Both the position numbers and the translations under genes were made by a program. Below, one piece after another: positions 8,531 through 61,205 of a DNA stretch of 61,205 nucleotides; the first letter of the stretch is position 1; every line of letters starts with the position of its first letter. The notes under the pieces were generated by a model. That model was not told the origin of the DNA. It saw only the letters and a list, made by a program, of their open reading frames with translations, and searched no databases. The DNA comes from an uncultured Smithella sp. (GTDB lineage Bacteria > Desulfobacterota > Syntrophia > Syntrophales > Smithellaceae), in contig CAYNWA010000011.1 of the NCBI GenBank assembly GCA_964400795.1, positions 26,374 to 87,578 on the forward strand, read 5' to 3'.

Positions 8531-8640
8531 TAATCCTCTGGTTATATTAATGCATTCTTTGTACCGGCAGAGTATAAGAATAACGATATTTTGTGTCAAT
8601 AAAATATAAATTTTGACCGGATACTTAAAAGATTTCATGG

Positions 8641-8669
8641 TTGACATATAGTGCTGTTCTTCCTATACT
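8641..8669 (+). promoter_or_regulatory. Sigma70-type promoter for the DUF853 ATPase
   Basis: TTGACA, 17-bp spacer, TATACT. Confidence 0.75.
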
Positions 8670-8709
8670 TTCTCTCACCATAAATAAAACCACCTAACAA
8701 GGAGCCAAT

Positions 8710-10251
8710 ATGACCACACCGCTTGTCATCGCCATGTCGCAAGGGAAGGAAATTACATTACTGCCGCAGATGGCCAACCGCCACGGTTTGATTACCGGCG
8801 CCACCGGCACGGGTAAAACCGTCACGTTGCAAAAAATGGCCGAATCCTTCGCTTCCATCGGCGTTCCTGTTTTTATGGCGGATGTCAAGGGAGACCTTTC
8901 CGGCATCGGCGCGGCGGGTGTCGCTTCGGAAAAACTGCTCAAGCGCCTGGAAGGCATCGGTGTGAAAAATTACACGCCTCGGGCCAACACGACGGTGTTC
9001 TGGGATGTGTACGGTAAATCCGGTCATCCGGTACGCGCCACCATATCCGATATGGGGCCATTGCTTCTGGCGCGTCTGCTTAACCTCAATGACACGCAAT
9101 CCGGTGTTTTGCAGATTGTCTTCAAAATCGCCGACGACAACGGATTGCTGCTGATTGACCTGAAAGATCTGCGGGCCATGGTTCAATTCGTGGGGGACAA
9201 TGCCAAAAAATTCAAGACGGAATACGGAAATATCTCCGCCGCATCCATCGGCGCGATACAACGCGGACTGCTCACGATCGAAGAACAGGGCGGCGATAAA
9301 TTTTTCGGCGAACCGATGCTGGACATTTCGGATCTGATTCAGACGGACAGCGAAGGACGCGGCGTCATGAACATTCTGGCCGCCGATCAGCTCTATAATA
9401 ATCCCAAACTTTATTCGACGTTTCTGCTCTGGATGCTGGCCGAACTGTTTGAGCAGTTGCCGGAAATCGGCGATCCGGAAAAGCCCAAGCTGGTTTTCTT
9501 TTTTGATGAAGCGCATCTTCTTTTCAGCGAAGCGCCCAGGGCACTTCTGGAAAAAATCGAGCAGGTCGTTCGCCTGATTCGTTCCAAGGGCGTGGGTGTA
9601 TACTTTGTTACACAGAATCCGCTGGATATCCCGGATACGGTTCTGGCACAACTGGGCAACCGAGTCCAGCATGCTCTCCGCGCTTTTACGCCGCGTGACC
9701 AGAAAGCGGTGCAAACGGCTGCTTCTACGATGCGCCAGAATCCGGCCTTCGATGCTGAACAGGCCATTACCGAGCTGGGTGTCGGGGAAGCGCTGATTTC
9801 TTTTCTGGATGAAAAAGGACGTCCGAATATTGTCGAGCGATCCAATGTAATCGTTCCTTTCTCGCGCATGGGCGCCATGACACCCAATGAACGCCTGATG
9901 GCCATCAAATCTTCCACGATTTACGAGCATTATGAAAAAACCGTCGATCGTGAATCCGCCTACGAAAAACTGCGTGAAGCCCAACAGGAAGAGGAAGCGC
10001 CCGAAGAAAAACCCGCCATTAAAATGGAGCGGTCCAGGGCTCCGGCAAAGAATGACGAGGAGAAGGACAGCAGAGGCATGGGAGATGCACTCAGCAAAAT
10101 TATTTTCGGTAGCAAAGGTCCTCGCGGAGGACAACGGGAAGGCATGGTGCAGGCCGCAGCCAAAAGCGTGGCGCGCAGCATCGGTTCTTCATTGGGACGC
10201 CAGATTATCCGCGGTGTGCTGGGCTCAATCCTGGGCGGTTCCCGCCGCTGA
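8710..10251 (+). CDS. HerA-like ATPase, DUF853/YjgR family
   Basis: [32 protein letters not shown] and [10 protein letters not shown]. Confidence 0.9.
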
Positions 10252-19460: not shown

Positions 19461-19680
19461 CATTATTGAGGATTGCCGTTTGAAAAATAGTATGTTCAAT
19501 ATCAAACCAAACTTTAGGCAGTCTAATCTTCTGGCTTATGTGCAGGTTGATTTATAAACATTCAAAATATCTCATGAAATTCATTAAGTTTACGCGCCAT
19601 CTTGTGCTTGACGCGCAAGGCAATTATTTATATTCATAAAAACTAAAAATTTTTGCTCTATCAATATTGAATTTATTGTG

Positions 19681-20928
19681 ATGAAAACCAGTAAAACCGG
19701 CAACAAGGACATAACTGAATATCTGGAAGAATATTTTGGCAAAAATATCTTGCCGCTATCCAAAGCCGAAAATAAATACATGCCAGGCGCAGGTCCTCTG
19801 GAAGTTTTCATATTTTACAAAAAAGATACTCCCGTACAAAAAGGAATAGAATGTTTTTTAAAAACGGCTGAGGACTACAATCTCTTTTCAAGCCGTTTAA
19901 TTATGATTGATGAAAATAAATTTGCCTTGCAATATTGCACTGACGGGATTGTGATAGAAACCTTGCCGCCTTTTCATACAGATTATACCGACGTAAGCAT
20001 TGATGATTTTAAAAATATGATGAGGCATGTTAAAACGTTGCCCGGCGAACCCCTTTTGGCTCTTACCATAATCCCCTTTAAAAATGGACATTTTGTAGGA
20101 GTCAGTTGCTCTCATGCAGTAGCGGATGGAACGTCTTTAATTCTTTTTCTTTACGCCTGGAATTGCACCGTTGAAGGGAAAAATATTATACCTCCTTCAA
20201 GACAAAGATTTTTTAGTGGAAATCCCATTCGCTCCGATAAAATCGACAAAAGTTTTACTCCTCCATTGTCTGAGCTGAACGATGAAATTAAGAAACGTTA
20301 TGAACGTGGCGTGACCATAAAAACATTCACGAAGATGGAATACTTTACGGATGAATTTCTCCATGAAATGAAAATTAACGCCAAGGCAGATAACAAGAAT
20401 TACATTATTTCCAATAATCAAATCATGACGGCATTGTTATTAAAAAAATATCATCAAAGTATTTTACCTGATACTGATCAGATTAGGATAAGAACTCCTG
20501 TAGATCTCAGAAATTTACACCCTGATATTGATTCAATGTATATGGGTTATGCAGTTGTAAACAGTTTTACGGAATTTAAAAAAGAAGAGATTGACAAAAT
20601 GTCAATCCCTCAGATCGCCTATCGTTTAAAAGAATCCATTACAAAAACAAGAGATAAAAAATTCATCAAAGAAATATCATATTTATCAAAATACGGCGTT
20701 GAGATTCAAGATGATGTTCTTGAAAAATTTCCTCCTTATAATATGGACACGGACATCCTTGCAGCCAATTTAACTCATTTGAATGATCTGGAATCTCTGT
20801 TTTTAGATCCGGATGCCATGAGTATTTTTTATGTTGGCGGAGCATCAATTAAAACATATTTCTCTATTTTGAAAGAAAAAACCGGTAAAATGGTTACTCA
20901 AATAACAAGCAGGTATCCATTAGTATAA
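19681..20928 (+). CDS. CoA-dependent acyltransferase, HxxxD (BAHD/condensation-like transferase) family
   Basis: SCSHAVADG motif, R-x-P-V-D-L-R, about 415 aa. Paralog at 34688-35938. Confidence 0.7.
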   Translation: MKTSKTGNKDITEYLEEYFGKNILPLSKAENKYMPGAGPLEVFIFYKKDTPVQKGIECFLKTAEDYNLFSSRLIMIDENKFALQYCTDGIVIETLPPFHTDYTDVSIDDFKNMMRHVKTLPGEPLLALTIIPFKNGHFVGVSCSHAVADGTSLILFLYAWNCTVEGKNIIPPSRQRFFSGNPIRSDKIDKSFTPPLSELNDEIKKRYERGVTIKTFTKMEYFTDEFLHEMKINAKADNKNYIISNNQIMTALLLKKYHQSILPDTDQIRIRTPVDLRNLHPDIDSMYMGYAVVNSFTEFKKEEIDKMSIPQIAYRLKESITKTRDKKFIKEISYLSKYGVEIQDDVLEKFPPYNMDTDILAANLTHLNDLESLFLDPDAMSIFYVGGASIKTYFSILKEKTGKMVTQITSRYPLV

Positions 20929-34687: not shown

Positions 34688-35938
34688 TTATGTTTTAAAT
34701 GGATATCTGCTTTGTATCTCTACAAATATCATATCCTTCTTTTCTTTCAATATAGCAAAGCTTGTTTGCATTGTTGAACTCATAAATATAATATTTCCAA
34801 GATCTGAACCCAAGCCCAGCGATTCAAGATTATTAACGTGAGTTAAATTAGCTGAAAGGATGTCTGTGTTAATATTATAAGGAGGAAGTGTTTTAAAAAT
34901 GTCACCCTGATATTCTACCCCATATTTCGACAGATATGCTATTTTTTTTACATAGTTTTCATTTCTCATTTTGGAAATTGATTGCTTAATGCGATAGGCA
35001 ATCTGATATTCCGACATTTTCTTGACTTCATTTTTTTCAAATTCAATGACACTAGAGAAAACTGCGTTACCCATATATGATGAATCAACATCAGGATGAA
35101 TGTATCTTAGATTAATGGGAATCCTTAATCTGACTTTATCAGTATCAGGCATAATTTCTTCATGATATTTTTTTAGTATTAAGGCATTTATAATTTGATT
35201 ATGGGAAATTACGTAGTTCTCATTTTCTGATTTTGCTTTGTTTTTAATTTCATCAAGTAATTTTTCGGTAAAGTATTCTCTTTTATAATATGTCTTCCAG
35301 CAATTTAAATTTTTAACTCGATTTTGAATTTCATCGTTTAACTCGGATAATGGAGGAATGAATGCTCTGTCAATCGTGTCAAAACAAACGGGTTGACCCT
35401 TGAATAGTCTCTGATTTGAGGGCATGGGGAAATTATGTCCATAGTGTATACATCCCCATGCAAACATAAAAAGCATCAAGGACGTAGCATCGCCTACCGC
35501 ATGAGAACAACTGATCCCACCTAATATGCCATCCTTTACTGGTATTAATGTAATAGCAAAAAGAGGTTCTCCCGGTAATGTTTTAACATGCTTTATTTTA
35601 TTCATTACATCATCAATATTTATATGATCGGAAGCTACATCAATAAACGGCAAAACATGATATTCAAAACCCTCTTTGCAATATTGGAGCGCATATTTAT
35701 TTTCATCAATCATTATTAAACGGCTGGAAAAAAGGTTGTAATGTTTAATGGTCTTCAAGAGACTTTCTCTTGCTTTCGAGAGAGAGGTCTTTTTCTTATA
35801 AAATACCAAAAATTCCGTTGGCCTGCTGCCGGGATAATCTTTATTTTCAAATATCGACAAAGGTAGAATATTGTTGCCATAATTATTTTCCAGATATGCA
35901 TTTCTTGCATCTTTACAGGTCTTCTGATTTTCTGTCAT
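34688..35938 (-). CDS. CoA-dependent acyltransferase, HxxxD (BAHD/condensation-like) family; paralog of 19681-20928
   Basis: SCSHAVGD motif and many blocks shared with the paralog. Confidence 0.7.
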   Translation of the reverse strand: MTENQKTCKDARNAYLENNYGNNILPLSIFENKDYPGSRPTEFLVFYKKKTSLSKARESLLKTIKHYNLFSSRLIMIDENKYALQYCKEGFEYHVLPFIDVASDHINIDDVMNKIKHVKTLPGEPLFAITLIPVKDGILGGISCSHAVGDATSLMLFMFAWGCIHYGHNFPMPSNQRLFKGQPVCFDTIDRAFIPPLSELNDEIQNRVKNLNCWKTYYKREYFTEKLLDEIKNKAKSENENYVISHNQIINALILKKYHEEIMPDTDKVRLRIPINLRYIHPDVDSSYMGNAVFSSVIEFEKNEVKKMSEYQIAYRIKQSISKMRNENYVKKIAYLSKYGVEYQGDIFKTLPPYNINTDILSANLTHVNNLESLGLGSDLGNIIFMSSTMQTSFAILKEKKDMIFVEIQSRYPFKT

Positions 35939-50346: not shown

Positions 50347-51192
50347 TCATTCCCGAATGACCTGTTGAGGAGATTTTTCAAGAACCAAGGGATTTTCCAC
50401 GCATTCTTTAAAAAATAAAAGTATGTCGCAGGCCTTTTTACCATCGAAGATTCGTTCATCTATGGTGAATCCGAATTTGATGACATCTGAAACTTTTAGC
50501 GTGCCTTCAGGTGTCACGACCGGTGCTTTATGCATTGCGCCTATAGTAACAAAAACCGATGCGTTCCCCCAGTCATAGAGATGATGATAAAGAGACTTTA
50601 AACCAAAAGATCCTATGTCTGAAACTACACACGAAGAAAACAAAGGGTTATCTTTATATGATGCATAGGGCAAAAGTCCTTTGTCAATCAGCCATGGATA
50701 TAATATCGCGCAAAATGACGAAATAAAATTGGGAAGTTTCATAAAGAAATCGATTATATTTTCATTGCTGTCGGCCGGTTTTTTAACTGTGTCATTAATA
50801 ATTTCTTTAATTTCCTTTGAGACGTCAAAAATATCCCATTCGGGTTGTCCAAATATTTTACGAAGAACAATTTTCCCGTTGATGTTTATAGCGAATGCTG
50901 CGGAATATTCACGTCTGGCGTAGAATTTATGATTATAAATAAATCTGTTTATCTCGGGAAACTGACTTGTTGTTCTAAGAAGAGCAGAAATGACCAGCTC
51001 AAAAATTGTGATATCATGACCTTCTTTTTTTTTGTTGTTTATAAAATTAACGGTGTGAGCAACGTCAACTTCCAGTTCATGCCAAACAATGGCTTCACTT
51101 CGTTTGGGCATGAAAAATGTGTAGCATTTCTGAAAACTGCTGATTGTTTTAAGATGGCGTCCATCTTTTCTTCCCATGTCAACCTCCGGCAA
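50347..51192 (-). CDS. Standalone 2-oxoacid dehydrogenase E2-like acyltransferase catalytic domain
   Basis: PEINRFI, SDIGSFG...YHHLYDWG and TIDERIFDG. No lipoyl or E3-binding domain. Confidence 0.75.
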   Translation of the reverse strand: MPEVDMGRKDGRHLKTISSFQKCYTFFMPKRSEAIVWHELEVDVAHTVNFINNKKKEGHDITIFELVISALLRTTSQFPEINRFIYNHKFYARREYSAAFAININGKIVLRKIFGQPEWDIFDVSKEIKEIINDTVKKPADSNENIIDFFMKLPNFISSFCAILYPWLIDKGLLPYASYKDNPLFSSCVVSDIGSFGLKSLYHHLYDWGNASVFVTIGAMHKAPVVTPEGTLKVSDVIKFGFTIDERIFDGKKACDILLFFKECVENPLVLEKSPQQVIRE

Positions 51193-51400: not shown

Positions 51401-52642
51401 ATGATGAAATGGATCAAGTTGTCATTACGCAATATATTAAGAAATAAACGCCGCTCTTTATTTACTATTGTCACCATAAGCATCGGTTTTGCTTCCATTG
51501 GATTGTGCTACGGATATCTTCATCATACCTATTGGGCTTTAAGCTATCTTGCTATTCACGGTGAAGGACTCGGACATCTGAGAATCAACAAAGCCGGATG
51601 GAAACAATATTCAAAGATGGACAAATTAAAATACATGTTTACATATGAAGAAACCCAAAAAATAATGAAGATTGTCGGTGAAGAAAAAGATGTGATATTG
51701 TCCACACCTCAGATTCAGCTCGCCGGTCTGGTGAGCAATGGTGAAATTTCCACTCTTTTTGTCGGTCAGGGTGTTGTCCCCAAAGACGATAAAATTCTTC
51801 AGACACAACGGTGGATCAAATATTCAAAGATCAAAGGGAAAAGATTGACGGAAGACGATCCCTCCGGTGTGGAGATGTCAAAAGGTTTGAGTAAATATCT
51901 CAATTTAATACCGGGGACAAAAGGCGTGGTTATGTCAAACACAGTCGATGGCCAGATGAAAGCTCTCGATATAAAAATAAATGGGGTCTACGATGCAGGA
52001 AATGAGATTTCCAATAACAAATTTTTACGATTCAATTTAAAATTTGTCCAGTCTCTCCTTGACACTCCATCGACAGAAAGAATCGTCGTTTTGCTCAAAG
52101 ACGTCACAGAAACAGAGGTAATGCGTAAACGCTTACTAAAGAAACTCGACGCTGCCGGCATAAATTGTGAAATGCTGACATGGAATGAATTGTCAATGGT
52201 TTATTCCAAGGTAAAATCTTTTCTCGACGCGATCTTTATTTTTCTTTTTGTTATCGTTTTGTTTATCGCAGTATTATCAATCATTAATACCATGAGCATG
52301 GTGGTCCTGGAAAGAACAAGAGAGATTGGGACATTGCGTACGCTGGGTTTAAAACGCAAAGGCGTAACCATAATTTTTGCTTTGGAGGGAGCTTGCCTGG
52401 GGTTTTTCGGCAGCATAGCCGGTTTTGTGTTGCATAGTGTCGTTGTGGGTATTACCAGATATCATCCCATGCGCTACACGCCGCCGGGTGCATCGAGTTC
52501 CGTATTGCTTTATATAGATATGGTGCCCGATGCGCTGTTTGTATTATTTATAAACTTTATTTTGCTGTCCATGGCGTCAGCTGTTGTTTCCGCCAGGCGC
52601 GCAGCCGGTAAAAATATTGTCGATGCGCTGGGGCATACTTGA
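51401..52642 (+). CDS. FtsX/LolE-type ABC permease (orphan in this window)
   Basis: RNILRNKRRS, VLERTREIGTLRTLG and IVDALGH. Confidence 0.88.
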   Translation: MMKWIKLSLRNILRNKRRSLFTIVTISIGFASIGLCYGYLHHTYWALSYLAIHGEGLGHLRINKAGWKQYSKMDKLKYMFTYEETQKIMKIVGEEKDVILSTPQIQLAGLVSNGEISTLFVGQGVVPKDDKILQTQRWIKYSKIKGKRLTEDDPSGVEMSKGLSKYLNLIPGTKGVVMSNTVDGQMKALDIKINGVYDAGNEISNNKFLRFNLKFVQSLLDTPSTERIVVLLKDVTETEVMRKRLLKKLDAAGINCEMLTWNELSMVYSKVKSFLDAIFIFLFVIVLFIAVLSIINTMSMVVLERTREIGTLRTLGLKRKGVTIIFALEGACLGFFGSIAGFVLHSVVVGITRYHPMRYTPPGASSSVLLYIDMVPDALFVLFINFILLSMASAVVSARRAAGKNIVDALGHT

Positions 52643-52943: not shown

Positions 52944-53801
52944 TTGAAAAATGTACTGGTTGCCGGAGCCTCATCCGGCATAGGACTTGCTGCATCGCGC
53001 CAACTTAATACTGACGGTTTCTGCGTCTACGCGGGCGCGCAATCATTCGGCAAAGAACAAATCGCATCCGAAGGGTTTATCATGTTGCCCCTGGATGTCA
53101 CCGATGATTTGTCCGTACAGGAAGCAATCCGGAATATTATACAAAGAGATGGCCGCATTGACGCGCTGGTAAACTGTGCCGCGTTTTTGACACTGGGAGC
53201 CTGCGAAGACGTCTCCGCTGAAGAATTACGCCTGGTCATGGAAACAAACTTTTTAGGAATGGCACGCATGACCCGGGCAGTGCTGCCAGCCATGCGCGAA
53301 CAGCAATATGGCCGTATTGTTAATATTTCATCTCTGAACGGTCTGTTCGGCATTCCTTTTCAGGGTGCCTATACAGCATCCAAGCACGCGATTGAAGGTT
53401 GGAGTGAAAGCCTTGCCCAGGAAACAAGACGATTCGGCATTTATGTGACCCTTGTGGAGCCGGGTGATTGTCGGGGCGGTGCTTTGAAGTACCGGACACG
53501 CGCGAAAGCTGCTGAGAAAAAAACTTCCCCTTATGCAGCATGGTATAAAAAAGCTGTCGACAAAATCATTCACGATGAACAAAACGGTCTCCATCCGGAG
53601 CGTGTGGCTCTTGCCATATCAAGCATTCTGCAAAGCCGGTGTCCGCCGTCTCGCCGAATTGTTGCAGATCCAATTCAGCGCTCGGCTGTTTTATTGCACA
53701 AGTTGCTGCCTCGTAGTGTATTTAACCGCATGATTGAAGTTTATTACACACCTGGGCAAGACGATATGCGATCTGAAATAAAAAAAATGGAGGGTAATTG
53801 A
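52944..53801 (+). CDS. Short-chain dehydrogenase/reductase; candidate 3-ketosphinganine reductase
   Basis: GASSGIG, NCA, YTASK and EPGD. Its stop overlaps the next ATG (TGATG). Confidence 0.85.
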   Translation: MKNVLVAGASSGIGLAASRQLNTDGFCVYAGAQSFGKEQIASEGFIMLPLDVTDDLSVQEAIRNIIQRDGRIDALVNCAAFLTLGACEDVSAEELRLVMETNFLGMARMTRAVLPAMREQQYGRIVNISSLNGLFGIPFQGAYTASKHAIEGWSESLAQETRRFGIYVTLVEPGDCRGGALKYRTRAKAAEKKTSPYAAWYKKAVDKIIHDEQNGLHPERVALAISSILQSRCPPSRRIVADPIQRSAVLLHKLLPRSVFNRMIEVYYTPGQDDMRSEIKKMEGN

Positions 53802-55057
53802 TGCCGGGGGAAAAAGATCAGCTGGCTTCGGCATTGCAGCAGGTTTTAAATAAAAAACAATCCAATAGAGATCCAAGAGTATTTACTGAAGACGTCTCTG
53901 TGCAACTGGCGATACTGATGAAAGAAATGGGATTGTATCCTTACTTCATGCCGATATCAGGGCAAATCGGACCGCGAATAATCATTGACGGCAGAGATAC
54001 CATTAACCTTGGCTCCAACAATTACATGGGACTGGCAAACCATCCGGATATGATTAAAGCCGGATGCGATGCCATGAGGAAATACGGTACGGGGTGCACG
54101 GGATCGCGCTTTCTCAATGGAACGCTTGAAATTCATAATGAACTGGAAGCAAAACTTGCAAAATTCTTTCAAAAAGAAGCCGCTCTTTGCTTTACGACGG
54201 GGATGCAGACGAACCTTGGCGTTATCTCTGGAATTACTCATAAGGGTGACCACATCATTTCCGATGAGAATAATCATGCCAGCATTATTGATGGCTGTCG
54301 GCTTTCACGTGCCAGCACTCATGTTTACAAGTATAATAATATGGATGATCTGAAAAGAGTTCTGACCGGTCTTCCAGAACAAGGTAACCGCTGGATCATC
54401 AGTGATAGTATTTTTTCCATGGAAGGGAATGTTGCTCAGATACCGCGTATTGTCGAACTGGCTGAAAGATACAGCGCGCGTGTAATTATTGACGATGCCC
54501 ATGGTATTGGCCACTTCGGGGAGCACGGGGAAGGTATTTGCGGACATTTGGGGTTAATGGATAAGATCGACATCCTCGTCGGTACATTTTCCAAATCATT
54601 TGCCAGCATTGGAGGTTTTTGCGCGGCCGGCAGAGAGATTATTCAACACCTTCAGCATCATGCGCGCAGTTTGATTTTCAGCGCTTCGATGCCCCCGGCT
54701 ATGGTTGCTACGGCCAGCAAAGCCCTGGATATCTTTTATGATGACGATAAAAGAAGAAAACAGGTTTTGCAAAATGCTTCCATTCTAAGAAAAGGTATAG
54801 AGTCTCTGGGGTTTAGAACTGTCCCACAAAAGATACCCACACCCATCATTCCCATTATTGTAGGAGATGTAATGAAATTAGCTTATTTCAGCAAGGGACT
54901 TCTGGAAAACGGTGTCTATATAAATCCGGTCATTCCTCCTGCGTCATCGGAAGCCATGATCAGAATGTCCGTTATGGCTACTCATTGTCAAAAGGATCTC
55001 AAAGATGCCCTGATCATATTGGAAAAAGAAGGCAGGAAACTGGATTTGATAAAATAA
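53801..55057 (+). CDS. spt: Serine palmitoyltransferase-like alpha-oxoamine synthase
   Basis: GLYPYF, GSNNYMGL, YGTGCTGSRFLNGT, NHASIIDG, DDAH, GTFSKS (PLP Lys), IFSAS, NPVIPPA and RMSVMATH. GGAGGG RBS. Confidence 0.78.
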   Translation: MPGEKDQLASALQQVLNKKQSNRDPRVFTEDVSVQLAILMKEMGLYPYFMPISGQIGPRIIIDGRDTINLGSNNYMGLANHPDMIKAGCDAMRKYGTGCTGSRFLNGTLEIHNELEAKLAKFFQKEAALCFTTGMQTNLGVISGITHKGDHIISDENNHASIIDGCRLSRASTHVYKYNNMDDLKRVLTGLPEQGNRWIISDSIFSMEGNVAQIPRIVELAERYSARVIIDDAHGIGHFGEHGEGICGHLGLMDKIDILVGTFSKSFASIGGFCAAGREIIQHLQHHARSLIFSASMPPAMVATASKALDIFYDDDKRRKQVLQNASILRKGIESLGFRTVPQKIPTPIIPIIVGDVMKLAYFSKGLLENGVYINPVIPPASSEAMIRMSVMATHCQKDLKDALIILEKEGRKLDLIK

Positions 55058-55134: not shown

Positions 55135-55842
55135 ATGAAACTCAAACAGAACCAAGACGGTAAAAAAGTACTAAAAACAATTTCCAATGATCGCACAAGA
55201 ACCAATTTAATAAGAAAGCCTGAACACATTGCGTTGGTTTTTTTAGTTCAACGCATTCCTTCCTGGATGAGTTCAGACACGCTTACGTTTATCGGATTGT
55301 TAGGAAGCGCAATAACGCTGACGGGTTTTGTTTTAGCCGCCCATATTCAACCCTGCTATTTTTTACTGTGTGTTCTGGGTTTGGCCATAAACTGGTTTGG
55401 TGACTCTCTGGATGGACGACTTGCCTTCTATCGCAACAAATCCCGTCAATGGTATGGATTTACGCTTGATATTATCATCGATTGGATAAGTATAATTTTA
55501 ATAGGTTTGGGATATTTGCTTTATGTTGAAGGCAACTGGAAACTGGCAGGTTTCGGACTCATTGTTTTGTATGGATGGAGTATGCTGATTACGTTGTTAC
55601 GGTATAAAGTTACGGGGAAATATATCATTGATTCCGGTATTTTCGGACCGACGGAAGTCAGGATTCTCATAGCGCTCTTTTTAATTCTTGAAATATTTTT
55701 CAAAGACATCATTTTGTATTCTGCAGCGCTTGCTTGCCTTGTTTTATTCTTCATCAATATTACCGACTCTCTTAAATTGCTAAGCCTTGCTCATGGCAGG
55801 GATCTTGAAGAAAAGCAAAATAATTTATACGGGAAAAAATGA
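55135..55842 (+). CDS. CDP-alcohol phosphatidyltransferase family protein
   Basis: DSLDGRLA...G...D...D signature and GPTEVR; multi-TM. Confidence 0.9.
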   Translation: MKLKQNQDGKKVLKTISNDRTRTNLIRKPEHIALVFLVQRIPSWMSSDTLTFIGLLGSAITLTGFVLAAHIQPCYFLLCVLGLAINWFGDSLDGRLAFYRNKSRQWYGFTLDIIIDWISIILIGLGYLLYVEGNWKLAGFGLIVLYGWSMLITLLRYKVTGKYIIDSGIFGPTEVRILIALFLILEIFFKDIILYSAALACLVLFFINITDSLKLLSLAHGRDLEEKQNNLYGKK

Positions 55843-56020: not shown

Positions 56021-57466
56021 CTATTTTTCTGAAGGCATGAGATTTTTTCGTTCCTTGTATGCCCAAACGCCCAGAGCGATCATTAATGCAAGGTAAATCG
56101 GAATTCTCCAGAAAAGAGGGAACAGTGCGAACCGGGATTGAACAAAAAAGACTGCTCCGATGAATCCGAACAGACAAAGCATATGTGGCGTCAGTTCCCG
56201 TTTGTAAAGCCAGCGTCCCGTCAGGCGGGTTTGTAAGACGATGACTTGAAGAAATTGCACGCCAATCATTAGAAGCGAGGTAAACGCCGCGCCTAATAGT
56301 CCATGCTGGGGTATGAGCATCACTCCGAATGTCGCCGCAAACAGCAATGTAATCACATTCCGCTTCAGCATCAGTGTGCTTTCCCCCAATCCATAAATCA
56401 CTTGAGAAGAAAGTTCACCGATTCCATTAACGAGCCGCCCGGAGAGGAGAATGAGAAACGCAAACAAATCGACGGAATACTGAGCTCCCGCTATGGACAG
56501 CAGTTCCTTGGGAAAACATGCCATGGTTGCGGCCACAGCGATCTGGATCATGGATACCATGCGAACGGTGTAGGAAAGGACATCCCTTAATTTTTCCCGT
56601 TGGTCATTTGATTGCAGGTGACTGACGATCGGGACGATTAGAGGATCATAACTCAACCGGACTTTCGCGATGCCGTCCGCGAGCATGCGCATGATTCCAT
56701 AGACAGCTGCAGAAGCGGGTCCGAGAAAGAAGAGCACCATCCAAAGATCAATTTGTGTAATGATATTTGCTATTAACCGTGCAAACGCTACGGGCAATGA
56801 ATAGCGAATCAGGCTTTGATCCACGGCTGTAATTCCTCTTTCAAGACTTGGGGGGAAATTATTTGCGAGGTATGTCAGAATGACGATGGCGCAAATCCAT
56901 TTCGCTCCGAACAGGCTCCATGCCAGGGCATTCGAAATTCCCGTCGGCCAGAGGGCAATGGCCAGAATCGGGATAAAGGAAAGGGAAAGAAATTGTTCCC
57001 ATATGGCGCGATATTGCGGTTTCCGGATTCCCATCAGGCATGCGGAACCATAACTGAGAACGACTGAGCCGGGAACGCTGAAAAGACAAATGGTGTAGAA
57101 CCCTAGCGTAACATGTTCAAAGCCGGTTGGGATCCATGCCTTACCGGTTGATAAGACGAGCACGGCAAAAAAAATGAAGCCCCCACTTAGAAAAAGCACA
57201 ATAAGCAACCACTTCCAGACTGTCCCGGCCGTCTGACCCTCTGTCGTTGATTGTTTCGGTATCCACCATGTCATCCCGGAGCTCATGCTCAAGCCGAGAA
57301 TCGTGGCAAGTGTTGTACAAAATGACTGCATCGAGATGAAGATTCCAAACATCTCCTGATTAAAAAGTCTCGGGACAATCAACATTAACGGTGAAATAAT
57401 GATTCTCAAAACCATTGCCGACATGTTGATAAACGAACCGCGAAAAATGAATCGGGTTTCAGACAT
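56021..57466 (-). CDS. MOP-superfamily (Wzx-like) oligosaccharide/lipid flippase
   Basis: About 13 TM segments, ..FG.., RYSLP, D.WMV.FFLG...AAVYG and PQHGLLGAA. Start at 57466 or 57484. Confidence 0.85.
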   Translation of the reverse strand: MSETRFIFRGSFINMSAMVLRIIISPLMLIVPRLFNQEMFGIFISMQSFCTTLATILGLSMSSGMTWWIPKQSTTEGQTAGTVWKWLLIVLFLSGGFIFFAVLVLSTGKAWIPTGFEHVTLGFYTICLFSVPGSVVLSYGSACLMGIRKPQYRAIWEQFLSLSFIPILAIALWPTGISNALAWSLFGAKWICAIVILTYLANNFPPSLERGITAVDQSLIRYSLPVAFARLIANIITQIDLWMVLFFLGPASAAVYGIMRMLADGIAKVRLSYDPLIVPIVSHLQSNDQREKLRDVLSYTVRMVSMIQIAVAATMACFPKELLSIAGAQYSVDLFAFLILLSGRLVNGIGELSSQVIYGLGESTLMLKRNVITLLFAATFGVMLIPQHGLLGAAFTSLLMIGVQFLQVIVLQTRLTGRWLYKRELTPHMLCLFGFIGAVFFVQSRFALFPLFWRIPIYLALMIALGVWAYKERKNLMPSEK

Positions 57467-58580
57467 GGTCGAGTCCTTCTTCACGGGATGGTTCCGGAAC
57501 GACTTCCTGTGTCCGGTCTCCTAACCCTTTTTCCATCATGATGTCCACGAAGCGCTCTCGTTCGTCCGGAGGTATGTTGTTCAGACACGCCAATCCGGCG
57601 TTTGATCCGGCAACCTGTTTCCAGAACAGCTCTATGTTTTCAGAAACGGAGGACGAGGGAAAATCAAACATCGCATGCGGTGCGGAAAGGTACCGGAAGA
57701 GGTGTCGATAAATGCGGTCATGAGGGTCCCATGCAGACAGATTTCCGAAAAGATGCAGATAAAGACGGTCATGAGGGTTCCATTTCTTTTCCATGCTGTA
57801 AAGAATGGTATAATAGGAAATATCTTTGGCATCACGAAAACGCCGCTGGCGAGTTTCCTCCAGGATAGGCCCGAATTCCTCTTCGACGCGCCATGCCGTT
57901 GATTTGCGAATGACAAGAGTCGAATGTATCGGAAAGATAATTTCATAACCGGCAAGACGGTGCCTGCATCTTCTTAGGTGGTCGTAAGCGTTCGCAATAC
58001 CAGAGGAGTAGATATTTGTTCGATACTGCGGCGATACGCGGGAATATTGTCGTTTTATCCACCTGAAATAGGCCGGATGAGTATGCAACTTAAGTGAAAT
58101 TGATCTGTTCCCCTTTATCGTGAAAAAAAAGCTCGGGTTGATTGGTGAAAAATGCATAACATCGTCGTTATTGTGGAGAAAGATTTCGGACAACCCGTCA
58201 ATACGATAGAGAAACGAACCAATGGCTCTGCTGTTAAATGTCGGGAGGCATTGTGCAGGAATGATTTCCCGGTGATCGATGATTTGGACTTGCCCCGAGT
58301 TGAGCAGATGAGATGCAAGGGGCGGAACCTGGGCATCGGTTACGATGAAGATTTTACGAATCCACGGCAGATATTTCAGAACGCTGTTGACGCTGAAAGT
58401 GATTTCTCCTACATCAAAGAAGCGGATATCGATATCTCCTGTATCGGAAACGTTTTTTGATAACGTTGCGTCTGGAGACTCCGAACGATACCGGTGACGT
58501 TTTTCCAGATGTACAGGATCGCTGCCATCGACATAGGTGAATACCATGTCTATCGGAATTTTCGATGTGACTGAATTCAT
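57459..58580 (-). CDS. Stealth-family hexose-1-phosphate transferase (copy 2)
   Basis: CR1 PIDMVFTYVDGSDP; CR2 KYLPWIRKIFIVT...LPTFNS...RIDGLSE...NDD; CR4-like CLNN. Start at 58580 after an AAGGAG RBS. Confidence 0.9.
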   Translation of the reverse strand: MNSVTSKIPIDMVFTYVDGSDPVHLEKRHRYRSESPDATLSKNVSDTGDIDIRFFDVGEITFSVNSVLKYLPWIRKIFIVTDAQVPPLASHLLNSGQVQIIDHREIIPAQCLPTFNSRAIGSFLYRIDGLSEIFLHNNDDVMHFSPINPSFFFTIKGNRSISLKLHTHPAYFRWIKRQYSRVSPQYRTNIYSSGIANAYDHLRRCRHRLAGYEIIFPIHSTLVIRKSTAWRVEEEFGPILEETRQRRFRDAKDISYYTILYSMEKKWNPHDRLYLHLFGNLSAWDPHDRIYRHLFRYLSAPHAMFDFPSSSVSENIELFWKQVAGSNAGLACLNNIPPDERERFVDIMMEKGLGDRTQEVVPEPSREEGLDHV

Positions 58581-58608
58581 GGGTTGCCCCTGTGCTCCTT
58601 TGTAATAT

Positions 58609-59664
58609 CTACTCACCTTTTGAAAGCATCGATACAGAGTCCGTTGCTGTTTCAGCCAATCCTTTTTGCCTCATAACTTCTTCGAACCGCCGGCGTTCAC
58701 TAATGGGCATGTTGTTCAGGCACGCCAGTGGAGCATGAGATCCGGTTATGCGTTTCCAGAGCAGATTACTGTTTCCAAACACGGAAAACGCAGTGAAGTC
58801 GAACATCGTGTTGGGGGCAAAAAGACTTCCCCAGAAGTGCAGATGAACGCGGTTCTGCGGATTCCATTTGTTTTCCATGCTGTAAAGAATTGTGTAATAA
58901 GAAAGATCTCTGGCATTTCGAAAACGTCTGCGGCGGGTTTCTTCCAGAATAGACCCAAACTCCTCCTCTACCCGCAGGGCTGTCGCTTTGCGCCAGATTT
59001 TCGTTGCGTGTACCGGCACGAGAATCTTACGACAGGCAAGATGATGCCTGCATTTTCTCAGAAGAGAATATGCGTTAGAAATCCCGATCGTGTGAAGGTT
59101 GGTGCGATATCCCCAAAATATATAAGATAACTCGGTCATTATCCATCGATACACGGCCGGATAGGTGTGCAACTCAAGGGAAATTGCTCCTTCCGCATTT
59201 GTTGTGCAAAAGAAGTCGGGGTGGATCGGAGAAAAATGCATGTAGTCGTCATTATTGTAGAGAAAGATTTCGGATAAACCATCGATGCGGTGGAGAAACG
59301 ATTCAATGACGTTGCTGCTGAATATGGGCAGGTATTGTGAAGGAATGAATTCCTGAGGATCAACAATTCGGATGCGGCCTGAATTTAGAAGATGCAAAGA
59401 AACGGGAAGTCGTGGGGTTTCGGTTACAATGAAGATCGTGCGGATCCACGGCAGATATTTCAGCACACTGTTGACGCTGAACGTGATTTCCCCGACGTTG
59501 CGGAAACGGATATCGACATCGCCCGAATCGGAGACGTGATTTGATCGTACGGTGTCCGGGAGTTCCGAACGATAACGGCTGCGTGTTTCCAGATATTCGG
59601 GATCATCGCCATCGACATAGGTGAATACCATGTCTATCGGAATTTTCGATGTGACTGAATTCAT
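58609..59664 (-). CDS. Stealth-family hexose-1-phosphate transferase (copy 1)
   Basis: PIDMVFTYVDGDDP, KYLPWIRTIFIVT, IESFLHRIDGLSEIFLYNNDD and CLNN. Confidence 0.9.
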   Translation of the reverse strand: MNSVTSKIPIDMVFTYVDGDDPEYLETRSRYRSELPDTVRSNHVSDSGDVDIRFRNVGEITFSVNSVLKYLPWIRTIFIVTETPRLPVSLHLLNSGRIRIVDPQEFIPSQYLPIFSSNVIESFLHRIDGLSEIFLYNNDDYMHFSPIHPDFFCTTNAEGAISLELHTYPAVYRWIMTELSYIFWGYRTNLHTIGISNAYSLLRKCRHHLACRKILVPVHATKIWRKATALRVEEEFGSILEETRRRRFRNARDLSYYTILYSMENKWNPQNRVHLHFWGSLFAPNTMFDFTAFSVFGNSNLLWKRITGSHAPLACLNNMPISERRRFEEVMRQKGLAETATDSVSMLSKGE

Positions 59665-59717: not shown

Positions 59718-61205
59718 TTACAAATTGAATTTAATGCCCAGCATTGCTTGATAATTAAGAACACCGCCATATTCCGTATCTTCATTTCCCACGTTAATCG
59801 CTGTAGTACCAAAAATATCCCAATAATCACCCAGTGAATATGAAAAGAGTCCAAATAATTGGCCGGAGCCATCATCGAAATTTTGCGTCCAGCGTAAGGT
59901 AACGGCTAATCTGTTGAATATGTTAACCTGATGATATTGAAGCATGACGTAGTTTCTGCGTAAAAATCTTAGCCCGGGATCTGTGGGTTGAGAAGAAAGA
60001 TAGTCTAAGATATCTTCCTTGGTTTTCAACGCCCAACGGCTATTCTTTTTGTGTATCGTACGATCGTAATCGTCAGAAGCTTCTTGTAGAGTAGAGAAAG
60101 CCAGGTTGGCTTCATCTTTATCATAACCAACTCCATTATATAAATACTCCAGGGTTAAGGTACCTCCATTGAAAAACGTGTATGCCCCTCCGGCCAGAAT
60201 GGATGGCCTAATATCATTGTCATCACTATGGATCTGTTGCAGGGAGGCTCCGAAACGTGATGAATCCTTTACAGGATACCACGCGTTGCTTCCTTGTCGT
60301 ACATTTCCTTCTGTGTAAAGCAGCAGAGCATCAGATGCTGTCCATACACCGAAAAAGCCGAATTTATCCGTTTGATTGGCTTCCTTTCTTGAATAAATTA
60401 AAGATCCGTAACCGTTAACACCTGTATAATCAATCTTAAGGGCATAGGTTTTATCAAAAGGTTCCAAATTGGGGAGGGTATTACGTCCTTCATCCGTATT
60501 AGCAATCAGAGATATTGACCAGTCGGAATGGGGAACCAACAAAAGACGAACGAAATCCATTCCCTGAATTTCCGCGTAGGTATTGCCCCGGCCGTTATCG
60601 CTAAAAAAAGGATTAGACGGAGAAACAAGGAAAGAAGGACCCCATTGCAGATTTTCTCTTCCGTAGGACACAAAAAGTCTGTTCCACCCATTTAGTCTGA
60701 CTAACCATTCGTTTACGTACCAGTCATCTTTTCCTTCTGTATCTCCTTCACGCATCCCTTCTTCCCAAAGCCGACAGTCGAGTTTCGCTCTGGGTTTGGC
60801 GGAAAGCTCCAGGTAATTTGAATTAAAATAGAAATCGGGCCTTATTTCCAGATCAGCACGATAATGCGGAATTTCAAGAAAATCATTGTTGGGATTGCGG
60901 CTCGATTCAACGGGATCCTGAGCAATTCCATAAGCGAGGACTTTCAAATCTGACGAAAAAAAATTCCTGATTTTTTGTAATGTCGTTTGGTTTTCGGCAT
61001 CCATCAGTATCATATCGATATTTTCATCGGATAAACGTAATGCCTCCGGATTTCCTTCAACGGAAGGAGCGCTTGTAATACCTGACGTTTCCTCCGGAAG
61101 AGCTTTTGGAGATTGAGAGGAATATTGATCTTCGACAAACTCTTCATGAGGATTTTCTGTAGCCCGGGCTGGACTCGGCATCCATAAAAAAGGAACAATG
61201 ACTAG
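59718..61205 (-). CDS. Exported, probable outer-membrane beta-barrel protein; 5'-partial (frame open to the window edge)
   Basis: The frame continues upstream of 61181 as LVIVPFLW-MPSPARA, resembling a signal peptide. GRENLQWG motif, alternating beta-strand pattern and C-terminal GIKFNL. Confidence 0.7.
   Translation of the reverse strand, partial: LVIVPFLWMPSPARATENPHEEFVEDQYSSQSPKALPEETSGITSAPSVEGNPEALRLSDENIDMILMDAENQTTLQKIRNFFSSDLKVLAYGIAQDPVESSRNPNNDFLEIPHYRADLEIRPDFYFNSNYLELSAKPRAKLDCRLWEEGMREGDTEGKDDWYVNEWLVRLNGWNRLFVSYGRENLQWGPSFLVSPSNPFFSDNGRGNTYAEIQGMDFVRLLLVPHSDWSISLIANTDEGRNTLPNLEPFDKTYALKIDYTGVNGYGSLIYSRKEANQTDKFGFFGVWTASDALLLYTEGNVRQGSNAWYPVKDSSRFGASLQQIHSDDNDIRPSILAGGAYTFFNGGTLTLEYLYNGVGYDKDEANLAFSTLQEASDDYDRTIHKKNSRWALKTKEDILDYLSSQPTDPGLRFLRRNYVMLQYHQVNIFNRLAVTLRWTQNFDDGSGQLFGLFSYSLGDYWDIFGTTAINVGNEDTEYGGVLNYQAMLGIKFNL

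Follow-up and report, generated by a model that had tools for sequence, protein, structure and literature searches.

A divergent clade of bacterial Stealth proteins encoded with a candidate flippase and near putative lipid head-group genes in an uncultured Smithella species

Introduction

In Neisseria meningitidis, the capsules of serogroups A and X are made by a Stealth enzyme that is itself the polymerase and acts without a partner polymerase. The Stealth family is defined by the Pfam models PF17101, PF11380, PF17102, and PF17103, and contains a CLND or CIND tetrapeptide described as "almost universally conserved" (Sperisen et al. 2005, PMC1285062). We analyzed two tandem Stealth genes, and the putative flippase gene that follows them, in a 61,205-nucleotide stretch of DNA from an uncultured Smithella species (GenBank assembly GCA_964400795.1, contig CAYNWA010000011.1, positions 26,374 to 87,578), hereafter the window. 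The encoded proteins belong to a divergent Stealth clade whose genes tend to lie beside those for lipid head groups. On balance, and with the acceptor deduced from genomic context only, we favor a reading in which the pair are cytoplasmic, peripheral sugar-1-phosphate transferases that act on the head groups of membrane lipids and not in capsule synthesis.

The closest described bacterial relatives are the Stealth capsule enzymes (PMC1285062) and CpsY of Mycobacterium tuberculosis (PDB 8j2n, PMC10668966). These share with the window pair the conserved regions CR1 to CR3, a GT-A-like fold, the N-D-D motif, the CR3 arginine and, in the case of copy 1, the CR2 glutamate. The predicted chemistry is also the same, namely sugar-1-phosphate transfer from a nucleotide sugar. 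By contrast, the window proteins carry the signature CLNN[IMV], read EI.FSV.S in place of ELRYSLRS, and comprise a minimal single domain; copy 1 and CpsY are approximately 20% identical in a structural alignment. The pair is further set apart from the capsule enzymes by its context of lipid head-group genes and a MOP flippase, and its acceptor is probably a lipid head group, not a polysaccharide. The best fold match was GNPTAB (PDB 7s6n, 7s05, 9bgf, and 7dxi), whose residues D407, D408, H956, R986, N1151, C1149, S385, and E389 all have equivalents in copy 1. Unlike GNPTAB, the Stealth pair lacks transmembrane anchors, Notch repeats, a DMAP domain, an EF-hand, and a gamma subunit. It is bacterial, predicted to be cytoplasmic, and has no glycoprotein substrate; the equivalents of D1152 and N1153 are altered, and copy 2 lacks that of E389.

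At the level of the pathway, the nearest described systems are a phosphosphingolipid gene region in Caulobacter and a putative CDP-inositol cluster in Bacteroidales, neither of which has a Stealth enzyme. The Caulobacter crescentus region (CC_1152-CC_1168; Olea-Ozuna et al. 2024, PMC11324152) resembles the window locus in combining ceramide genes with a CDP-alcohol-type gene (CC_1159), a putative flippase gene (CC_1166), and outer-membrane transport genes. It differs in having a phosphoglycerate-based head group and a second Lpt set for transport, whereas the window has a Bacteroidota-like pair of serine palmitoyltransferase (Spt) and KdsR-like reductase and no bCerS was seen in it. In Bacteroides vulgatus and Prevotella, the putative cluster for CDP-inositol lipids (PMC9246714) is similar to the gene set of one relative of the window locus, L024, and the CDP-alcohol phosphotransferase-like (CDP-OH) protein of the window is also small. 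However, the window contains no MIPS, NTP-transferase, or HAD gene, and the published cluster contains no Stealth gene or flippase. An analogy can also be drawn with phosphatidylinositol-glycolipid pathways (mycobacterial PgsA1-PimA and eukaryotic glycosylphosphatidylinositol PIG-A/PIG-L), as relatives of the window locus cluster genes for CDP-OH and GT4 enzymes and sometimes for a deacetylase and a flippase. In contrast to these pathways, the window has no GT4 or deacetylase gene, and the predicted phosphodiester-sugar step of the Stealth enzymes has no counterpart in them.

A literature search returned nothing linking Stealth proteins to sphingolipids, SPT, or inositol lipids, and nothing on ceramide phosphoryl-mannose, the sphingolipids of Smithella or Syntrophus, or Bacteroides ceramide phosphoethanolamine in connection with CDP-alcohol transferases. 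For most bacterial sphingolipids no head-group enzyme is known. Phospho-hexose ceramides have been reported without an assigned synthase (PMC9246714). Ceramide phosphoryl-mannose, reported from Sphingobacterium, likewise has no known synthase. A Stealth clade tied to lipid head-group genes would provide a concrete, cloneable candidate for a head-group enzyme.

Results

Identification of the Stealth pair

Stealth copy 1 (58609..59664, minus strand) is a putative sugar-1-phosphate transferase of 351 amino acids, predicted to be soluble and single-domain. Its paralogue, copy 2 (57459..58580, minus strand), comprises 373 amino acids. The two tandem Stealth open reading frames (ORFs) reported in the earlier note on this DNA are real and both lie on the minus strand; their products are 59% identical. 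The ORF of copy 2 spans 57459-58616. Its start is most likely the ATG at 58580, not the GTG at 58616, because an AAGGAG precedes this ATG and the resulting N-terminus, MNSVTSKIPIDMVF, is the same as that of copy 1. A hydropathy scan detected transmembrane segments in neither protein.

Structure modelling and searches with the Stealth profile models, both suggested by the earlier note, yielded a confidently predicted Stealth (GT-A-like) fold for copy 1 and matches of both copies to CR1 through CR3. The two copies scored 28.4 and 32.1 bits with Stealth_CR1 (gathering threshold (GA) 27.2), where the motif IDMVFTYVDG is present, and 94.3 and 100.8 bits with Stealth_CR2 (GA 39.4), in which the N-D-D motif reads YNNDD in copy 1 and HNNDD in copy 2. 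The matches to Stealth_CR3 were marginal (25.1 and 25.4 bits; GA 24.2). Stealth_CR4 matched neither copy, even at E ≤ 5, and the Pfam scan revealed no domain besides the Stealth regions in either. No NCBIfam model matched the Stealth proteins, the flippase, or the outer-membrane barrel encoded in the same operon. The description of the pair as a bare CR1-CR4 core was thus borne out as to CR1-CR3 and the lack of other domains, but CR4 is present only as a divergent equivalent that Pfam does not see. This equivalent was recognized by its CLNN tetrapeptide, by profile alignment to KF[IV]CLND of GNPTAB, and by a predicted strand and helix (residues 313-333). Both copies have CLNN at the site of CLND/CIND, the cysteine and the Mg-binding asparagine being kept, and both contain GEITFSVNSV in CR2, as the earlier note had read them.

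The AlphaFold2 (AF2) model of copy 1 had a predicted local distance difference test score (pLDDT) of 88.4 and a predicted template modelling score (pTM) of 0.89. Its 13 best Foldseek matches were the catalytic domains of GNPTAB (E = 1e-16 to 1e-18) and CpsY (TM-score 0.81, normalized to the target), followed by retaining GT-A glycosyltransferases. Based on CR1-CR3 and the fold, and with the CLND tetrapeptide and CR4 as the points of departure, both proteins are best described as members of a divergent Stealth clade.

Active-site residues

In GNPTAB, Mg1 is bound by D408 and N1151, R986 contacts the beta-phosphate, H956 is the general base, D407 contacts the ribose and Mg2, and E389, S385, and N406 contact GlcNAc (PMC9388126, PMC8913297). 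Mutagenesis of CpsY agrees for E305, N322, D324, and R419 (PMC10668966). In profile alignments, the active-site residues of GNPTAB and CpsY correspond to D140, N317, R249, H219, D139, E121, S117, and N138 of copy 1, which keeps E121, N138, D139, D140, H219, R249, C315, and N317. Throughout the clade, D139, D140, and H219 do not vary, and each of the remaining five mapped residues is kept in at least 100 of 122 clade sequences (R249 in 113). Judged by these alignments, the active site of copy 1 is complete for phospho-sugar transfer, and we infer that the chemistry of the pair is sugar-1-phosphate transfer from a nucleotide sugar.

The aspartate of CLND is not among the residues named as catalytic or ligand-binding in either GNPTAB structure paper, so its replacement by asparagine is probably a second-shell change. 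The position after CLN[N/S], equivalent to the disease site N1153 in GNPTAB, is occupied by I, M, or V in the clade, which suggests a reshaped pocket. As support for the function inferred in the earlier note, CLNN is weak: the motif is real and clade-wide, but the aspartate is not a listed catalytic residue and the essential asparagine of CLN is kept.

In copy 2, the sugar-binding glutamate (E389 in GNPTAB, E305 in CpsY) is replaced by glycine. This substitution, E121G, and Y136H (both in copy-1 numbering) occur only in copy 2 and three orthologues, that is, in 4 of the 122 sequences. Mutation of the matching glutamate reduced activity 50- to 1,000-fold in GNPTAB (PMC9388126) and 200- to 500-fold in CpsY (PMC10668966). 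Because the remaining active-site residues of copy 2 are intact and its orthologues are well conserved, E121G probably reflects a changed donor sugar, not decay. Alternatively, copy 2 could be a non-catalytic partner.

Position in the Stealth family

A search of 1.84 billion cluster representatives yielded 5,910 Stealth matches at E ≤ 1e-3 and only 25 at E ≤ 1e-30. Approximately eight representatives aligned over their full length at >190 bits, after which the score dropped sharply, most others covering CR1-CR2 only. C-[LVF]-N-[NS], with I, M, or V as the next residue, is present in all of these approximately eight and in 118 of 120 homologues closer to the pair, and the same sequences read E-I-x-[FY]-[SA]-V-x-S in CR2. 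The next-best representatives mostly had ELRYSLRS and C[LI]ND, in agreement with the near-universal CLND/CIND of the published family description (PMC1285062). As these alignments indicate, GEITFSVNSV and CLNN are hallmarks of a clade and not peculiar to the window. In a neighbor-joining (NJ) tree of CR1-CR2, for which CpsY and GNPTAB fragments from the PDB search were the only references, the bacterial CLNN sequences formed a single group far from CpsY and GNPTAB. The drop in score after about 8 of the 5,910 matches, the clade-wide motifs, and the single NJ group bear out the proposal of a divergent Stealth subfamily. The signatures CLNN[IMV] and E-I-x-[FY]-S-V-x-S make the clade easy to find in other genomes.

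The sister group of the clade consists of Stealth proteins of approximately 300 amino acids from lake metagenomes. Its members (L011 7258-8814, L012 441-1997, and many lake loci among L033-L091) read C[LF]N[SN]M and include fusions to a cytidylyltransferase-like domain. The contigs of this group carry eukaryote- or giant-virus-like genes (protein kinase, RING finger), and CDP-OH, GT4, or flippase neighbors were never present in the loci examined.

The flippase and the convergent lipid operon

The flippase gene (56021..57466, minus strand; 481 amino acids) starts at an ATG at 57466, read as ATGTCTGA, that overlaps the stop of copy 2 by 8 nt, confirming the overlap noted earlier; by this arrangement the flippase is translationally coupled to copy 2. 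The protein is a candidate MOP/PST-family (Wzx-like) flippase on the combined evidence of a sub-threshold Polysacc_synt match (25.4 bits; GA 28.2; E = 1.1e-5), at least 11 hydrophobic segments in a crude hydropathy scan (12-14 are expected for MOP/PST), and its relatives, of which three of six family members match PF01943 (best E = 4.5e-8) and one matches PF13440. Sequence and profile searches of the PDB returned noise and no solved relative. "Wzx-like flippase" is a reasonable name, not a proven one. A flippase gene likewise follows a Stealth gene in L001-L005, L009, L013, L022, L024, and L092.

Convergent with the Stealth genes, a plus-strand operon of the order FtsX-like > KdsR-like > Spt > CDP-OH ends 178 bp from the flippase stop. 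Promoter and terminator scans of this 178-bp gap detected no sites. The Spt gene (53798..55057, plus strand) encodes a serine palmitoyltransferase, which catalyzes the first step of sphingoid-base synthesis. Its ten best PDB matches were all bacterial SPTs, led by 3a2b (344 bits; KBL scored 254 bits), and its best NCBIfam match was SerpalmtaseCFB (455 bits, below the equivalog cut-off of 640). The preceding gene (52944..53801, plus strand), whose stop overlaps the Spt start by 4 nt, encodes a short-chain dehydrogenase/reductase (SDR) that is likely a 3-ketodihydrosphingosine reductase; the best NCBIfam match was KdsR (NF049977; 235 bits, cut-off 400).

The last gene of the operon (55135..55842, plus strand) encodes the CDP-OH protein, of 235 amino acids with approximately six hydrophobic or transmembrane segments. 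It scored 20 bits with Pfam CDP-OH_P_transf (GA 22; E = 9e-4) and 30 bits with the NCBIfam archaetidylinositol-phosphate synthase. Its best solved relatives were the choline/ethanolamine phosphotransferases CHPT1 and CEPT1 (E = 1.3e-8), and the PDB search turned up no chain of the PIP/PGP-synthase type, which uses CDP-diacylglycerol. Enzymes of the CHPT1/CEPT1 type transfer a phospho-alcohol from a CDP-alcohol to a lipid hydroxyl. Compared with the family motif, D-x2-D-G-x2-A-R...G-x3-D-x3-D, the window protein reads DSLDGRLAF-x9-GFTLDIIID: all four aspartates and both glycines are kept, phenylalanine replaces arginine, and the spacer has one extra residue.

Hundreds of homologues of the CDP-OH protein at 55-60% identity occur in Bacteroidales (Prevotellaceae, Tannerella). 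In one Prevotellaceae contig (L093 8001-9121), the gene overlaps a GtrA-like gene and has no MIPS cluster. This was the sole context examined, and the identification of the Bacteroidales homologues with the MIPS-linked enzyme of Heaver et al. is unproven.

The first gene of the lipid operon (51401..52642, plus strand) encodes an FtsX/LolCE-like permease (Pfam FtsX, 59.5 bits; NCBIfam lolCE, 85 bits, below the cut-off). The gene is kept beside the cluster in L002, L003, and L013, and in L024 at 69% identity. The permease could serve to extract the lipid product from the inner membrane. Divergent from the operon lies a gene for a CAT-fold (2-oxoacid-dehydrogenase-type) acyltransferase of 281 amino acids (50347..51192, minus strand; Pfam 2-oxoacid_dh, 59.7 bits) without lipoyl or E3-binding parts. 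It too stands beside the FtsX gene in L002, L003, and L013, and in L024 at 68% identity. The protein is a possible non-canonical ceramide N-acyltransferase, its membership in the system being tentative.

Gene context in relatives

Context was scored using tblastn and Pfam in genome, metagenome, and contig loci of the clade. The closest loci were those of a marine-sediment contig (L013; 98-99% protein identity), an uncultured Smithella metagenome-assembled genome (L003; 88-96%), and Syntrophaceae UBA6255 (L002). We counted 15 non-redundant clade loci, each with at least 4 kb of flank, and neighbors within 8 kb. An identity cut-off did not cleanly part the bacterial from the lake-metagenome clade, and membership was assigned from the full-length E-value rank and context. 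A CDP-OH transferase gene was present in 12 of the 15 loci, the same flippase family in 7, GT4 in 7, and at least one of the three in 14. None of the three was present in the 24 loci with at least 4 kb of flank that fell below 38% best-segment identity. Because L001-L003 are closely related to the window locus and L006, L008, and L031 group together, the loci represent about ten independent lineages.

Recurrent arrangements occurred in unrelated lineages. Specifically, three contigs of high GC content (L017, L019, and L032) have CDP-OH>GT4>Stealth; L009, L022, and the P0031 contig have GT4>Stealth>flippase; and the P0023 contig has a flippase gene, a CDP-OH gene, and NTP-transferase>Stealth>GT4. 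In L092 and L094, deacetylase>Stealth>flippase converges on a 65%-identical CDP-OH gene, beside a set for polyketide synthase, alpha-oxoamine synthase, and SDR. P0121 is a Stealth-GT4 fusion. Comparison of these loci shows a clade-wide association of the Stealth genes with lipid head-group genes.

In a deltaproteobacterium (L024), the barrel, FtsX, and CAT-fold acyltransferase genes are shared with the window locus at 68-69% identity. Between its two Stealth genes lie genes for MIPS, a HAD hydrolase, a CDP-OH transferase, and an NTP-transferase. A relic of the Spt C-terminus (77% over 35 amino acids) and a relic of KdsR (56% over 57 amino acids) occupy positions 8593-8820, between the NTP-transferase and deacetylase genes. 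The locus looks as if the Spt-KdsR operon has been replaced by an inositol cluster of MIPS, HAD, CDP-OH, ATP-grasp-like, and NTP-transferase genes. Heaver et al. (2022, PMC9246714) put forward a MIPS/NTP-transferase/CDP-OH/HAD gene set as a pathway to inositol lipids via CDP-inositol.

The remainder of the Stealth operon

The Stealth operon has the order LolA-like > outer-membrane barrel > Stealth1 > Stealth2 > flippase, its genes overlapping or separated by short gaps. It starts outside the window edge, the Stealth genes being its third and fourth. The ORF for the predicted outer-membrane beta-barrel, the second gene (59718..61205, minus strand), is cut by the window end (61182-61205). In the full contig the barrel has 510 amino acids, and its first 15 codons, which begin the signal peptide, lie outside the window. 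In L013 and L003, the barrel likewise has 510 amino acids and a signal peptide (L013 start, MKKYFSKKDFFIITALVIVPFLWMPSPARA). The AF2 model of the barrel had a pLDDT of 67 and 16-18 predicted strands, and its best Foldseek matches were the OccK/OprD, MOMP, and OmpF porins. The barrel had no Pfam match, and sequence and profile searches of the PDB returned only noise; one UniRef relative is named "alginate export domain-containing". Directly upstream of the barrel in the full contig is a LolA_like gene; in L013 and L003, this gene encodes a 253-residue protein matching PF17131 (109 bits; L013 6346-7107). Farther upstream are genes for a zinc-ribbon protein, a TPR protein, and a nuclease in L013, and for an FAD synthetase, a semialdehyde dehydrogenase, a TPR/PMT_2 protein, and a Macro-domain protein in L003. 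The FtsX/LolCE-like permease and the LolA-like carrier homologue could form a Lol-like lipid route; no ATPase gene adjoins that of the permease.

Discussion

Proposed function

Based on strong homology, Spt and the KdsR-like reductase would produce a sphingoid base. An N-acyltransferase, for which the CAT-fold protein encoded at 50347-51192 is a candidate, would convert this to dihydroceramide, and the Kennedy-type CDP-OH enzyme would attach a phospho-alcohol to the hydroxyl of the lipid as its head group. The acceptor of the phospho-alcohol may, in other lineages, be an inositol glycerolipid instead of ceramide. Phospho-inositol is our best guess for the head-group alcohol because a relative carries the MIPS/NTP-transferase/CDP-OH/HAD cluster. 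Each Stealth paralogue would then add one sugar-1-phosphate to a hydroxyl of the head group on the cytoplasmic face, yielding phosphodiester-linked sugars, the acceptor being that suggested by context. As in GNPTAB, this would be a one-step, Mg-dependent reaction in which, to judge from the conserved residues, a histidine acts as base and an arginine and an asparagine hold the beta-phosphate. The two copies probably use different sugars, as copy 2 is without the sugar-binding glutamate. The MOP flippase would move the finished lipid to the periplasmic leaflet, and the FtsX-like permease, the LolA-like protein, and the barrel may bring it to the outer membrane. The last of these steps is the weakest because the LolA-like/barrel family is large in deltaproteobacteria and the barrel model resembles porins.

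The earlier note had proposed a lipid acceptor and no capsule. We favor this proposal on the strength of the Spt operon, the recurrence of CDP-OH, GT4, and flippase genes, the Stealth-GT4 fusion, and the inositol cluster, all of it genomic context. More tentatively, and with somewhat more doubt than belief, we suggest that the clade is an enzyme class for phosphodiester-linked sugar head groups on bacterial sphingolipids or inositol lipids, such as ceramide-phospho-(inositol)-phospho-hexose, which would make lipids a third acceptor class of the Stealth/GNPTAB fold. If so, the mechanism of GNPTAB and Stealth would extend from glycans to membrane lipids, and the outer membrane would contain a hitherto unrecognized anionic glyco-phospho-sphingolipid, served by a dedicated Wzx-like flippase and Lol-like delivery. 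Judging from the locus, some anaerobic Desulfobacterota (Smithella/Syntrophaceae) may produce complex anionic sphingolipids that are exported by a flippase and possibly a Lol-like system, which is relevant to outer-membrane architecture outside the lipopolysaccharide (LPS) paradigm.

Several points weigh against a lipid-modifying role. The sequence reveals neither the acceptor nor the donor of the Stealth pair, the sequencing runs that contain the locus are DNA (metagenome) only, and convergent operons need not be co-regulated. The NJ tree is without bootstrap, and the branch supporting the clade in it is short. In L007, a complete-genome relative (788-kb contig, from an assembly with a further 6.2-Mb contig that carries this protein), the Stealth pair stands alone and the CDP-OH homologue is elsewhere in the genome. 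We considered the alpha-oxoamine synthases of Pleomorphomonas L006 and of L092 as a wider sphingolipid link; both scored best as BioF-like, with Spt second, and the link is for this reason secure only in the Syntrophaceae loci. No ceramide synthase of the bCerS or Acetyltransf_6 type was found among the scanned ORFs of the window, although one could be elsewhere in the genome, and the window contains no homologues of the MIPS, NTP-transferase, HAD, GT4, and deacetylase genes of L024. Finally, the LolA-like/barrel pair belongs to a far larger deltaproteobacterial family (>1,100 matches) and may be unrelated.

Alternative readings

The alternative that survives best, which we nevertheless consider unlikely, is that the pair are polymerases or co-polymerases that build a short poly(sugar-phosphate) on a lipid anchor, which is flipped by a MOP protein of the TacF/Wzx type and exits via the barrel. 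The characterized Stealth enzymes of Neisseria serogroups A and X polymerize without a partner, and two or three tandem paralogues would fit an alternating co-polymer. The number of Stealth genes varies within the lineage: L001 (1840-5139) and L002 (3-2501) have three tandem paralogues ahead of the flippase gene, compared with two in the window, and such triplets would fit a head group that lengthens with copy number and equally a co-polymer. The sequence is compatible both with the one or two units of the earlier note and with a short polymer. The name of the "alginate export" relative of the barrel also favors a polymer, as does the assay of CpsY on glucan (PMC10668966). The barrel model, however, is like general or substrate-specific porins and showed no specific match to a polymer exporter; the presence of a MOP flippase points to a lipid-linked unit of restricted size; and in other lineages the genes that partner Stealth code for single-addition (GT4, deacetylase) or lipid head-group enzymes.

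The gene content of the window bears on the same question. As the earlier note had stated, no polymerase or nucleotide-sugar genes are visible, and this holds throughout the window and for the next 6-7 kb past its end, as read from the same contig or related ones. As an argument against a polymer, the missing polymerase gene is uninformative because known bacterial Stealth enzymes are polymerases themselves. Dedicated nucleotide-sugar genes may likewise be unneeded, as the donor could be a housekeeping UDP-sugar. An ABC capsule exporter, KpsS/KpsC, Wza/Wzc, and an LCP-type ligase were not found in the window or just beyond. The earlier note had named kps or wzy genes just past the edge as evidence that would count against its reading, and none turned up: in L013 and L003, which cover those 6-7 kb, as in the 61-kb window, there were no capsule genes of the kps/ctr, KpsS/KpsC, or wzy/wzz/wza/Wzc types and no initiating phosphoglycosyl-transferase.

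A role in modifying a conventional glycan linked to undecaprenyl phosphate (for example, the repeat of an O-antigen or exopolysaccharide, or a side branch of the LPS core), with the sphingolipid operon nearby by coincidence, is in our view improbable. Wzx-like flippases usually carry units linked to undecaprenyl diphosphate, and Stealth genes occur in streptococcal Wzx/Wzy capsule loci. The two operons of the window are convergent and not co-transcribed, and the Stealth pair of L007 is without lipid genes. However, the window contains no WbaP/WecA-type initiator, Wzy, chain-length regulator, or further repeat-unit glycosyltransferase, and the CDP-OH neighbor in 12 of 15 clade loci from several lineages is hard to ascribe to chance.

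Least likely of all is a change of donor or acceptor class, in which the clade would transfer a phospho-alcohol from a CDP donor, or hexose-1-phosphate to the C1 hydroxyl of ceramide, with copy 2 perhaps a non-catalytic or regulatory partner in a heterodimer: the N or S at the CLND aspartate, the I, M, or V at the N1153 position, the little base selectivity of GNPTAB for uridine (PMC9388126), the cytidylyltransferase-like fusions of the sister clade, the E121G substitution of copy 2, costly when mimicked in GNPTAB and CpsY, the dimeric state of Stealth enzymes (PMC8913297, PMC9388126), and a tentative report of phospho-hexose dihydroceramide with no known synthase in Sphingomonas paucimobilis (PMC9246714) speak for it, but both copies retain every residue that handles phosphate, metal, and base, the sugar pocket still has S117, N138, and H219, the fusions belong to a different clade with eukaryote- or giant-virus-like neighbors, and a separate CDP-OH enzyme would seem redundant if Stealth made the first head-group bond.

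Additional observations

The 57 nucleotides at the 5' ends of the two Stealth genes (59608-59664 and 58524-58580, minus strand) are 100% identical, and the remainder is 68% identical. L013 shows the same identity between the 5' ends of its paralogues, and L003, from Smithella, does not, its copy 1 having a different 5' sequence. Because of this distribution, the identity points to a recent gene conversion from copy 2 to the 5' end of copy 1. Copy 2 also contains a diverged internal tandem duplication of 51 nt (17 amino acids), WNPHDRLYLHLFGNLSA / WDPHDRIYRHLFRYLSA, at approximately 57640-57740 on the minus strand, between CR3 and CR4. Copy 1 lacks this duplication, which was missed by Tandem Repeats Finder and is visible in alignments only. 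In CpsY, the CR3-CR4 spacer in which it falls gates the active site.

The remaining genes of the window encode housekeeping, redox, efflux, and other functions. Among them are two paralogues of 416 amino acids and 54% identity (19678-20928, plus strand, and 34688-35938, minus strand) that belong to the HXXXD "Transferase" family PF02458 (BAHD-like acyltransferases). Both lie in low-GC patches, with a GC content of 0.34-0.37 compared with approximately 0.45 for the window.

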